Positions 2 to 3,073 of a stretch of DNA of 64,000 bases are shown piece by piece; positions within the stretch are counted from its first letter, which is position 1, and the number at the start of each line of letters is the position of its first letter. This stretch comes from a bacterium (GTDB lineage Bacteria; Zhuqueibacterota; Zhuqueibacteria; Residuimicrobiales; Krinioviventaceae). Under the pieces are notes generated by a model. The model saw only the letters and a program-made list of their open reading frames with translations. It was not told where the DNA came from and ran no database searches. Position numbers and translations under genes: made by a program. The DNA lies in NCBI GenBank assembly GCA_963675755.2, contig CAXXMD010000003.1, forward strand, positions 2,528,001 to 2,592,000, read 5' to 3'.

Positions 2-217
2 ATGGGCAGACCCGAAGGCGGTCCTGGTGGTGGAATGGGTGGAGGCCCTGGTGGTGGTGGTATGGGCGGACCTCCCGGAGGTGGAGGAGGCGGCCGTGGT
101 GGTATGAGTGGTGGACCGGGAGGAGGCCCTGGTGGTGGCCCCGGTGCTTCTCAGGATAGTGATATATCTAAAGACACGAAAGCATGGTTTAAACTGATAA
201 ATACAATAGCTCAATAA
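2..217 (+). CDS. C-terminal fragment of a protein with a Gly/Pro/Met-rich low-complexity tail (5'-truncated by window)
   Basis: Open frame from window edge; GGPGGGMGG repeats then non-repetitive C-terminus and TAA TAA. Confidence 0.7.
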   Translation: MGRPEGGPGGGMGGGPGGGGMGGPPGGGGGGRGGMSGGPGGGPGGGPGASQDSDISKDTKAWFKLINTIAQ

Positions 218-277: not shown

Positions 278-301
278 GAACATATTTTTAACTTATACGT
301 T
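278..301 (+). promoter_or_regulatory. ECF-type sigma promoter, sRNA unit 1
   Basis: GAAC(278-281)-N16-CGTT(298-301); same spacing recurs at 436-459 and 556-579. Confidence 0.65.
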
Positions 302-310
302 TAAGTAATT

Positions 311-374
311 AACAACCTTTACCCAGGTTAATAGTAGAAGGACAGTTGCCCTACCCAGCGGCTGTCCTTTTTTT
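311..374 (+). ncRNA. Putative small RNA, sibling 1
   Basis: Hairpin AACCT/AGGTT with loop TTACCC, then GGACAGTTGC/GCGGCTGTCC stem with CCTACCCA loop and T-tract; near-identical to 468-536. Confidence 0.65.
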
Positions 375-435
375 GATGATTTTTGGCTGAATTGTTGTTT
401 TTTTTTAATTTTTTTGAAAATTAATGGTTTTTTTA

Positions 436-459
436 GAACTTTTTTGCATATAATACGTT
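436..459 (+). promoter_or_regulatory. ECF-type sigma promoter, sRNA unit 2
   Basis: GAAC(436-439)-N16-CGTT(456-459). Confidence 0.65.
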
Positions 460-467
460 GTCTATAA

Positions 468-536
468 AACAACCCCTTTACCCGGGTTGATAGCAGAAGG
501 ACAGTTGCAACTACCCAGCGGCTGTCCTTTATTTTT
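468..536 (+). ncRNA. Putative small RNA, sibling 2
   Basis: Hairpin CAACCC/GGGTTG with loop CTTTACCC (compensatory change versus unit 1), same terminator stem with AACTACCCA loop. Confidence 0.65.
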
Positions 537-555
537 ATTAAATGTGAAATAAAAT

Positions 556-579
556 GAACTTTTTTATAAATACCGGGTT
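556..579 (+). promoter_or_regulatory. ECF-type sigma promoter, sRNA unit 3
   Basis: GAAC(556-559)-N16-GGTT(576-579). Confidence 0.5.
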
Positions 580-585
580 GAATTA

Positions 586-655
586 ATATACCCTCCATTA
601 TTCCTTTTATAGTCAAAAGGGCGGTTGCTTTAATTAGACAACTGCCCTTTTTTTT
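586..655 (+). ncRNA. Putative small RNA or leader, diverged sibling 3
   Basis: ATACCCTCC anti-SD-like 5' end, ATAG before the stem as in units 1/2, terminator AAAAGGGCGGTTG/CAACTGCCCTTTT plus T-tract. Confidence 0.5.
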
Positions 656-728
656 ATGGGATTAATTGGATATGCTCACCTGTTTTATCATTTATTATCT
701 GAAAATAAATAATAATCTGGAGGGTAAC

Positions 729-1271
729 ATGAAGAGAATTATATTGGGTGTTGTATTGGCATCTATTGCCTCATTTGCGTGGGGCGCATTTTACTGGATG
801 GGTCCGTTGAGCGCTAACGCGTTCAATATTCAACCGGATGATAACAAACTTCGTACTGCATTAAAAGAAGCTTTGCCGGAAAGCGGAACGTTTTTCGTTC
901 CAAATCCCAATATGGCCCAGGCCGACCATGCAAAGCTGCATGAAGAGGGACCCATCGCTATGATCCACTTTGTCCGCGACGGTAAACCGTCAAATATGGG
1001 CGCGTTTATGGGATTGGGATTTTTGATAAATATGGCCCTGGCTGCTTTCCTTGCCGTTTTGTTGAAAATTGGAGCTCCCCGGTTGTCCGGTTATGGTAAG
1101 CGGGTTGGTTTTGTTGCACTGATTGGCCTGGCAGCTTCCGTGTTCACCCGGATTGGTGGTGGTGTTTGGTGGTATCACAATGCAACATGGGTATCCGTTA
1201 TGTTCTTTTATGATTTGACTGTTTATATTGTGATCGGGCTGGTTTTGGCGAAATTTGTCAAGGCTGAATAA
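729..1271 (+). CDS. Hypothetical integral membrane protein (~4 TM)
   Basis: ORF 666..1271; ATG at 729 after GGAGG; four hydrophobic segments. Confidence 0.75.
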   Translation: MKRIILGVVLASIASFAWGAFYWMGPLSANAFNIQPDDNKLRTALKEALPESGTFFVPNPNMAQADHAKLHEEGPIAMIHFVRDGKPSNMGAFMGLGFLINMALAAFLAVLLKIGAPRLSGYGKRVGFVALIGLAASVFTRIGGGVWWYHNATWVSVMFFYDLTVYIVIGLVLAKFVKAE

Positions 1272-2141: not shown

Positions 2142-3044
2142 ATGAAAATTTATGATAAAGATATTTCAAGACGCCGGTTTATCAAGGTAACGGCGGGAGC
2201 TGCCGGTGCTGCCAGTATAAGCAATGTGGCGCGCGCGGCAGATAAAAAGCAAAAACGATCAGCCACTGATAAAGTGACTTTGGGTAAATCCGGATTGGTG
2301 GTTAGCAGACTTGCCATGGGTACCGGTTCGCAAAACGGCAAGGTACAACGGCAACTGGGGCAGGATGGTTTCAATGCTCTGGTACAATATGCTTATGACC
2401 AGGGAATTACATTTTTTGATACCGCGGAAAACTATCCCGGAATGCATGATATGCTGGGTATTGCATTAAAAGGTTTTGACCGTGATAAAATCCAGATCCA
2501 GACCAAAATGCCTTGGTGGAAATCTCCTGATCCGCAAAAAGAACTGGACCGCTACCGCAAACAGTTGAATTCCGATTATTTTGATACTCTGCTAATCCAT
2601 TGTGTAACCACACCAGACTGGGACGATACCCAGAAATACATCATGGATTTTTTGATGGAAGCCAAAGAGAAAAAGTTGGTAAAAGCACCGGGAGTCTCGA
2701 TTCATGGCAGACTGCCGTTAAAGACCGCTACGCTGGACGATTGGGGCGATGTGCGTATGGTGCGCATTAATCATAATGGTGCCAGCATGGATATTGCGGC
2801 CCAGGGTGAGCAACCGGATGTGAATGCAATTGTAGCAAATGTTAAAAAAATGCACGACAGCGGCAAGGGCATAATCGGCATGAAACTCATTGGGAACGGC
2901 AAGTTCAAAGATCCTCAGCTCCGCAAAGATGCCATGAAATTTGTAATGGGACTGGATTGCGTGGATGCGGTTTCAATCGGGTTCAAGAGTCCCGCAGAAA
3001 TCGATGAAGCTATTGGAAATATGAATACGTATTTGAATATCTAA
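2142..3044 (+). CDS. Aldo/keto reductase family protein with Tat signal
   Basis: SRRRFIK twin-Arg; LGKSGL..SRLAMGT, FFDTAENY, TK, D.LLIH motifs. Confidence 0.85.
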   Translation: MKIYDKDISRRRFIKVTAGAAGAASISNVARAADKKQKRSATDKVTLGKSGLVVSRLAMGTGSQNGKVQRQLGQDGFNALVQYAYDQGITFFDTAENYPGMHDMLGIALKGFDRDKIQIQTKMPWWKSPDPQKELDRYRKQLNSDYFDTLLIHCVTTPDWDDTQKYIMDFLMEAKEKKLVKAPGVSIHGRLPLKTATLDDWGDVRMVRINHNGASMDIAAQGEQPDVNAIVANVKKMHDSGKGIIGMKLIGNGKFKDPQLRKDAMKFVMGLDCVDAVSIGFKSPAEIDEAIGNMNTYLNI

Positions 3045-3050
3045 GTATTT

Positions 3051-3073
3051 AGTAATCAGTAATCAGTAATCAG
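3051..3073. repeat. Heptamer tandem repeat (AGTAATC)x3
   Basis: agtaatc agtaatc agtaatc ag right after the stop codon. Confidence 0.7.

Follow-up and report, generated by a model that had tools for sequence, protein, structure and literature searches.

The small RNAs (sRNAs) RybB and MicA of enterobacteria are controlled by sigmaE. CpxQ and MicL are Hfq-dependent single-copy sRNAs, which are found at the 3' end of a gene region for envelope stress and share its terminator, and LhrC, RsaE and RNAIII are regulated by two-component or quorum systems and not by ECF sigma factors. According to the available text of PMC8383071, RybB and MicA depend on Hfq, use seeds of down to 7 nt and have many targets. 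FopS of Bacteroides thetaiotaomicron is described as a family of 14 copies with a single-stranded 5' seed, which carries the R1 sequence of GibS, and with housekeeping sigma-ABfr promoters (PMC11697453, available text). The tandem array analysed here is best read as an ECF-driven, Hfq-independent family of sibling sRNAs, which probably represses an outer-membrane transporter.

The window comprises 64,000 nt (contig CAXXMD010000003.1, positions 2,528,001-2,592,000), and the coordinates of the units are counted within it. In the following, G000 is the genome itself, G001 a sister species and G017 a genome of another genus, g5. The array and its neighbours comprise these features:

2..217, + strand: 3' end of the last gene of the upstream cluster (289 aa, no family match); the sRNAs lie in its 3' region, and the gene order is the same in G017
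278..301, + strand: predicted ECF-type promoter of unit 1, with -35 GAAC (278-281), a 16-nt spacer and -10 CGTT (298-301); boxes identical in G001, spacer 9/16; motif enrichment and ECF autoregulation as evidence
308..374, + strand: sRNA 1 (about 67 nt, predicted start), with 5' hairpin 314-329 (loop UUACCC), linker and U-tract; fold z-score -5.2; 65/67 identical in G001; predicted 41-bp duplex with a receptor leader
within 308..374, + strand: terminator stem of sRNA 1, 338-349/358-369, loop CCUACCCA
436..459, + strand: predicted ECF-type promoter of unit 2, GAAC-N16-CGTT (CGTT at 456); both boxes identical in G001
466..536, + strand: sRNA 2 (about 70 nt, predicted start), with 5' hairpin 470-489 (loop CUUUACCC) and U-rich tail; fold z-score -5.6; 65/69 identical in G001 (466-534); predicted 38-bp duplex with the receptor leader
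within 466..536, + strand: terminator stem of sRNA 2, 497-508/518-529, loop AACUACCCA
556..579, + strand: predicted ECF-type promoter of unit 3, GAAC-N16-GGTT (GGTT at 576); both boxes identical in G001, spacer 11/16
586..656, + strand: sRNA 3 (about 70 nt, predicted start), with unstructured C/U-rich 5' part, terminator 615-627/639-651 and U-tract; fold z-score -5.3; 62/71 identical in G001
589-597, + strand: anti-Shine-Dalgarno-like UACCCUCCA, first part of sRNA 3
718-726, + strand: Shine-Dalgarno region TGGAGGGTA of the downstream gene, read from the sequence; perfect 9-nt complement to 589-597 of sRNA 3
729..1271, + strand: downstream gene, 180-aa membrane protein without family match; synteny marker
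1339-2103: djlA, following the 180-aa gene; synteny marker

A first-pass annotation had proposed three GAAC-N16-(C/G)GTT units, each with about 65-70 nt and a terminator, and all three are present as listed. Roughly 7-10 nt past each -10 box lies a stretch of 67-71 nt, which ends with a G+C stem and a U-tract. Units 1 and 2, proposed to be near-identical, share 88% identity over 67 columns. The compensatory difference suggested for their 5' hairpins can be read directly from the sequence as AACCT/AGGTT (314-318/325-329) in unit 1 and CAACCC/GGGTTG (470-475/484-489) in unit 2; both units form two hairpins, and UACCC is present in both loops of each. Unit 3 is diverged and keeps TACCC, as had been claimed; however, its TACCC (589-593) is located at a single-stranded 5' end outside any loop, and the unit possesses only the terminator and no 5' hairpin. 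For each of the three units, none of 200 shuffled sequences folded as stably, and in all three the + strand folds better than the - strand. A simple terminator scanner missed the hairpins of the + strand, flagging instead the 5' hairpin of unit 2 on the - strand. An open reading frame of 101-107 aa on the - strand over 293-616 was treated as spurious because G001 carries indels in this region. One contig, from a run that is possibly the assembly's own source, spans the stretch with no differences, and contigs from two runs over the locus revealed no variants. As the same array is also found in G001, it is, as far as testable, not an assembly artefact. Taken together, the computational tests uphold the sibling sRNA anatomy, and it is very probable that the three units are sRNAs.

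The comparison of G000 with G001 indicates that the units are under selection, since the RNA parts and the promoter boxes (24/24 positions identical) are kept while the DNA between them drifts. Identity is 35/48 in the promoter spacers and 29/60, 37/61, 16/21 and 52/61 in the flanking spacers, and 26 of the 80 fourfold-degenerate sites of the next gene have changed. Using a model built from the six copies of both genomes, one syntenic copy with the same neighbours was found in G017. Its 5' hairpin has a different sequence with UACCCUUUAC, its terminator stem is diverged with the loop CCUUACCCU, and UACCC occurs both close to the 5' end and within the loop of the terminator. Among the findings that would speak against a family, the initial annotation had named homologs without the promoter spacing and a dispersed repeat. 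The G017 copy carries GAAC-N16-CGTT, and model searches of the own genome returned the three copies (E <= 7e-15) at one locus and nothing else below E 0.2; a contig scan for the array also detected one locus only. In the seven sequences, 93.4% of the cells of the terminator helix are paired, a share reached by none of 500 shuffles, and three pairs have changed on both sides, which does not exceed the shuffles (61/500). These seven sequences are not independent, because the RNA is confined to two related genera.

The Rfam comparison suggested by the first-pass annotation revealed no family at the gathering threshold: among the 4,227 models of Rfam 15, the best match over the units reached 21.8 bits, compared with a cut-off of 70 (E 3.3), and a scan of the sRNAs in loci L002 and L038 gave no match at E <= 1. 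A DNA search of 41 relatives detected the array in G001 only. Model R1 identified the G017 copy among 19 family genomes, with plain terminators as the remaining weak matches. Model R3 was used on 40 genomes of the order and 150 of the phylum, a search of limited sensitivity that scored 100 and 26 candidates per genome, respectively; all 17 further weak matches lacked the promoter. Across 125 genomes of the class, a promoter-plus-TACCC pattern occurred at control level outside G000, G001 and G017. Metagenomes contained one pattern match, which lacks promoter and terminator, and viral sequences none. Thus, the multi-copy family that had been proposed is multi-copy, but narrower than suggested: the genomes searched contain 7 copies, spread over 3 genomes and 2 genera. 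The family is real and conserved, probably functional, and new at the level of its sequence. Two 3' regions of G000 (C3:1475624-1475726, L052, and C2:1074415-1074517, L049) carry CTTTACCC just ahead of a terminator (E 0.6 and 0.25); the first of them lies behind a small barrel-like gene, and its loop contains TTTAACCC. They are possibly 3'-derived relatives of the sRNAs, or similar by chance.

The syntenic loci of relatives, 28 of which were read by pattern, allow another explanation to be weighed, according to which the units are stacked terminators of the upstream ECF operon and the complementarity to the receptor leader described below is a relic, e.g., an inverted leader copy, with no regulatory role. 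Two genomes of the genus of G017, G005 (C82, L180) and G014 (C36, L181), have only a terminator at this locus; its stem is unit-3-like, and any remnant of the promoter is decayed. The stretch from the upstream stop (217) to unit 1 contains no other terminator, and the leader match is colinear over about 53 nt. However, conserved promoter boxes and a conserved 5' part would be superfluous for a terminator, and promoter and UACCC are kept in G017 despite the different stems. In the 27-nt core, moreover, all transitions between sRNAs 1/2 and the leader go in the G-U-compatible direction, which is a weak argument because only four positions are independent. Stacked terminators are thus quite improbable as an explanation of the array, and the terminator-only state of G005 and G014 seems to fit a loss of the sRNA better than a gain.

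The annotation had also assigned ECF-type promoters to the units. For Streptomyces sigmaE, promoters of the form AAC-N16/17-CGT are given in the available text of PMC6767563. In G000, 8 of 13 matches to GAAC-N14-TACGTT, which corresponds to a spacer of 16, are intergenic, unit 1 among them, compared with 3 of 90 at ten other spacers. The raw counts of the promoter pattern were not above the reversed control, and with a -10 box reduced to CGTT, spacers 11 and 14 are likewise often intergenic. Out of 24 ECF-like genes in G000, one (G000:C2:841215) is preceded by GAAC-N16-CGTT. Among the 30 of 39 pattern matches that were read in five relatives, three precede apparent orthologs of this gene, in G011, G014 and G005. 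A promoter motif ahead of the gene of an ECF sigma factor is the usual sign of ECF autoregulation. Enrichment at spacer 16 and autoregulation in four genomes substantiate the assignment, and the conserved upstream element is, judged by these patterns, a real ECF-type promoter motif. Genes behind AT-rich GAAC-N16-(C/G)GTT sites mostly start signal-peptide-like (14 listed, functions judged by eye); since many genes for exported or outer-membrane-type proteins lie behind this promoter as well, the sRNAs would form the repressing arm of an envelope-stress response.

The cluster upstream of the array encodes an ECF sigma factor, a putative anti-sigma factor and Spy-like proteins. This adjacent ECF, whose gene ends shortly before the window begins, shares 29% identity with the ECF encoded at C2:841215 and has its own conserved motif, GGAAT-N14-GTTGTC, just upstream in G000, G001 and G017. 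It is disfavoured as the driver of the array due to this different motif, and the distant autoregulated ECF at G000:C2:841215 is therefore the more likely driver of the two, as far as motifs can tell. The gene of the adjacent ECF apparently starts at an ATA codon (L025 ~3010-3060; G000:C3:2524010-2524060). The same cluster contains a 496-aa exported protein (G000:C3:2525800-2527290; L025:4801-6291), which carries Spy/LTXXQ-like units in repeated form and, at its C terminus, a sorting domain of the FlgD-Ig/T9SS type. On the other side of the array, the djlA-like gene has its closest named homologs past near relatives in Desulfobacterota-type genomes, with about 50% identity. The gene content would suit a member of the FCB group.

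The best off-locus blastn match of units 1 and 2 runs antisense to the region around the start of a gene of 1,117 aa (G000:C3:255766, - strand), which is located 2.3 Mb from the sRNAs and encodes a TonB-dependent receptor with Plug and TonB-receptor barrel domains. It is the first gene of a cluster, followed by genes for a 685-aa FN3-like protein and a protein of the PorV/PorQ family. In a duplex scan of 4,874 start regions, for which gene starts were taken from a simple ORF caller, the receptor ranked first for sRNA 1 (-36.5 kcal/mol, next -25.5) and for sRNA 2 (-41.1 kcal/mol, next -33.3). When the 5' domain of unit 2 was shuffled 22 times, no shuffle reached this energy, and the best gave -32.2. 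An ungapped whole-genome scan allowing G-U pairs also returned the receptor site as best, with a score of 55 that was reached by 0/107 and 0/109 shuffles, and the receptor remained first among the top 300 once the folds of both RNAs themselves were subtracted. A GGGUA-containing ribosome binding site (RBS) as target, which the first-pass annotation had foreseen, is thereby upheld computationally.

The full duplex is predicted to cover -56 to -4 of the leader with 41 bp (5 G-U) for sRNA 1 and 38 bp (4 G-U) for sRNA 2. Loop 1 would pair together with the linker across the Shine-Dalgarno region, and a second GGGUA further upstream, the spacing of which matches, would be bound by loop 2. The leader contains three GGGUA sites, and three copies of GGGTA are present in only 3 of the 4,874 leaders; the third site is located in the loop of a 13-bp hairpin, the outer pair of which is swapped in G001. 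The pairing is retained in G001, where the target site is identical at 60/60 positions, as in 4 of the 25 leaders compared, and no compensatory sRNA-mRNA change was found between the two genomes. In G011, the only case of this kind, the receptor ortholog (65% identical) has a leader without GGGTA and no sRNA was found. G017 has no close ortholog of the receptor, so the receptor is not the ancestral target. For the G017 copy, no target was found among 30 of its 34 Plug-domain loci, and four seed-pattern searches gave control-level match counts; this makes the long duplex a lineage-specific feature, and the family may originally have worked by short-seed pairing to Shine-Dalgarno sequences. Repression of the receptor by sRNAs 1 and 2 is predicted and rated as probable. 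A separate motif, AAGGAGGTG, is found some 110-130 nt ahead of the start of genes of this receptor family in G000, G001, G011 and G034 (G000:C3:255880-255890 region; L021, L031, L033). It is conserved amid differing surroundings, a conserved small ORF is absent, and it is possibly a leader element of its own.

The same complementarity has been considered under two other mechanisms. The sRNAs might activate the receptor by pairing with an anti-Shine-Dalgarno arm of its leader (UCCUUCU), thereby freeing the RBS, or by protecting the mRNA. UCCUUCU is complementary to the leader's own AAGGAGG, is kept in G011 and is spanned by the sRNA pairing. However, the predicted duplex runs on via GGGUAAAGG and GGUU to -4 and covers the Shine-Dalgarno sequence, and the predicted leader fold has no stable stem that sequesters it, which makes activation very improbable. 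The other mechanism is a dCas12f-sigmaE system, in which guide RNAs target DNA upstream of a SusC-like gene (PMC13472631, available text). With that system the array shares an adjoining ECF gene and a match ahead of the gene of a TonB-dependent receptor, but the match lies on the RBS and needs G-U pairs and therefore points to RNA-RNA pairing. Moreover, the matching part is located at the 5' end of a 70-nt RNA, where the scaffold would not fit. PF07282 had no match in G000, although this profile may miss diverged dCas12f, and none in the neighbouring genes that were scanned. Guide RNAs are hardly conceivable here, and repression of the receptor is the reading pursued below.

Further candidate targets were ranked in the same scans. 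Two TonB-receptor-like genes appear for sRNA 2 at rank 2 (G000:C3:2115366, L028) and rank 5 (G000:C1:372233, L240); the rank-2 site is unchanged in G001, and both fall after structure correction. A curli-like cluster (G000:C3:3466210-3479918, L239) comprises eight curlin-type genes, two of them confirmed as PF07012, and csgE/F/G-like genes; curlin matches occur in 3 of the 19 family genomes. The high raw ranks of the receptors and GGGTA near curlin starts are weak hints of short-seed anti-Shine-Dalgarno pairing. They fit the proposal of broadly acting siblings, the conserved job of which would be to place short UACCC-type seeds on many GGGUA-type RBSs (curlins, other receptors, the downstream gene), with the long receptor duplex as a lineage-specific addition. 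The G017 copy and unit 3 retain a 5' UACCCU seed without an extended target. TonB-receptor-like genes account for 4 of the top 20 for unit 2, or 3/19 minus the main target (p ~9e-4), although two of the matches had been used to seed the set of 52 receptor genes. The rank-2 site (-33.3) beats 22/22 shuffles and is kept in G001; after structure correction, however, the secondary receptors no longer rank among the top 12. GGGTA is found within 25 nt of the start in 5 of the 8 curlin genes and in 123 of 4,874 genes overall, but the curlin genes are paralogs, and the distributions do not coincide: G017 has the sRNA and no curlin match, G014 has curlins and no intact sRNA. Broad action is an unlikely account of the array, and it is compatible with receptor repression and does not exclude it.

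For unit 3, no target stands out as an outlier: 104 of 109 shuffles reached its best score. The gene of a putative small barrel protein, g953, was rejected as its target because the pairing is not kept in G001, where it drops from -28.7 to -16.1. For this unit only, a cis-acting role has to be considered, in which it serves as leader or attenuator of the downstream gene and read-through RNA pairs UACCCUCCA with the Shine-Dalgarno sequence of that gene. The 9-nt complement to 718-726 is perfect, and in the read-through fold part of UACCCUCCA pairs there. Against this stand the strong terminator in between, a duplex of sRNA 3 with this Shine-Dalgarno region of only -19.9 kcal/mol, which is outside the top 25, and the different Shine-Dalgarno sequence of the downstream gene in G017. 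A cis-acting unit 3 is accordingly rather improbable; it is more readily seen as a diverged sibling with an open anti-Shine-Dalgarno seed.

The proposed mechanism of receptor repression builds on the computed anatomy, conservation, promoter motif, complementarity and its rank, and the missing Hfq match. We infer that envelope stress would free an ECF sigma factor, most likely that of C2:841215, which would transcribe each unit from its own GAAC-N16-CGTT promoter to the intrinsic terminator. The units would act in trans as paralogous sRNAs. By displaying UACCC in two loops, sRNAs 1 and 2 could dock at two start-proximal GGGUA sites through loop-loop kissing and nucleate the duplex of 38-41 bp over -56 to -4. 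The duplex would hide the Shine-Dalgarno sequence, thereby stopping translation of the receptor, a large outer-membrane barrel, without Hfq, and would probably invite cleavage by RNase III. Hfq (PF17209) was found in none of the three genomes, with a positive E. coli control, and its absence suits the long pairing. All three genomes contain an RRM-domain gene, which is located at C3:3486651 in G000 and is RbpB-like by domain only.

A more far-reaching interpretation, which we regard as tentative, holds that the array is an independently evolved, Hfq-free sigmaE-sRNA-OMP circuit. In such a circuit, two UACCC loops would read a repeated GGGUA code in the transporter leader, and a trans-encoded RNA would form a duplex as long as that of a cis-antisense RNA. 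The relatives would then represent stages at one operon terminator, from a terminator only (G005, G014) via one sRNA (G017) to three copies, two of which are fitted to a new target (G000, G001). The kind of regulation is a known one, and the target prediction is, as far as sequence can tell, unusually strong. If the receptor is repressed as proposed, the logic by which an envelope-stress sigma factor switches off an outer-membrane protein via an sRNA would reach a lineage without an Hfq match and, in the literature searched, without described sRNAs. The locus would also offer a compact example of how an sRNA is duplicated and retargeted. Its distribution is narrow. As the prediction names a promoter, a candidate sigma factor and one sharply defined target, a reporter strain would suffice to test it, and the organism itself need not be cultured.

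The literature search, which covered the main texts of mostly freely accessible papers, found no paper describing this RNA, and a term search of the KSB1 paper PMC11683472, as far as its text was available, returned no sRNA passage. Among described systems, several resemble the array in single features. The sRNAs resemble CpxQ and MicL in their position in the 3' region of a gene cluster, which here has Spy-like genes. As described in the available text of PMC8383071, LhrC of Listeria monocytogenes and RsaE and RNAIII-rot of Staphylococcus aureus share with the array redundant C/U-rich motifs, which occur in a stem-loop and also in the terminator, and Hfq-independent pairing at the RBS. RNAIII-rot needs two loop-loop contacts, and the twin C-rich loops found here recall both LhrC and RNAIII-rot; these systems differ, however, in their Gram-positive hosts, in UCCC instead of UACCC and in their short duplexes (PMC8383071). 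DonS of Bacteroides fragilis also has long complementarity and represses a polysaccharide-utilisation locus as an antisense RNA, but it is described as cis-encoded (PMC13750123, available text), whereas the sRNAs here are located 2.3 Mb from the target and match it imperfectly. FopS comes close in several respects: its available description (PMC11697453) presents paralogous sRNAs of about 65-70 nt with an intrinsic terminator, which, as predicted here, repress translation of SusC-like TonB-dependent transporters by pairing beside the start codon in a lineage without Hfq. The array differs in having three tandem copies, seeds in two loops and a duplex of 38-41 bp, and its conserved upstream element is GAAC-N16-CGTT and not a sigma-ABfr promoter. 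The FopS architecture of a single-stranded 5' stretch and a terminator is found in unit 3, whereas units 1 and 2 have a 5' hairpin. RybB and MicA are also short RNAs driven by an ECF promoter. They match the predicted circuit in that they silence mRNAs of outer-membrane proteins (PMC8383071, available text) and form the repressing arm of an envelope-stress response. They are set apart by their Hfq dependence, as no Hfq was found here in three genomes, and by the long pairing, the one outstanding target and the lack of a sequence match. The best reading is therefore that the sRNAs would work like RybB/MicA and FopS and belong to neither, given no Rfam match, no Hfq match and a promoter class unlike that of FopS.
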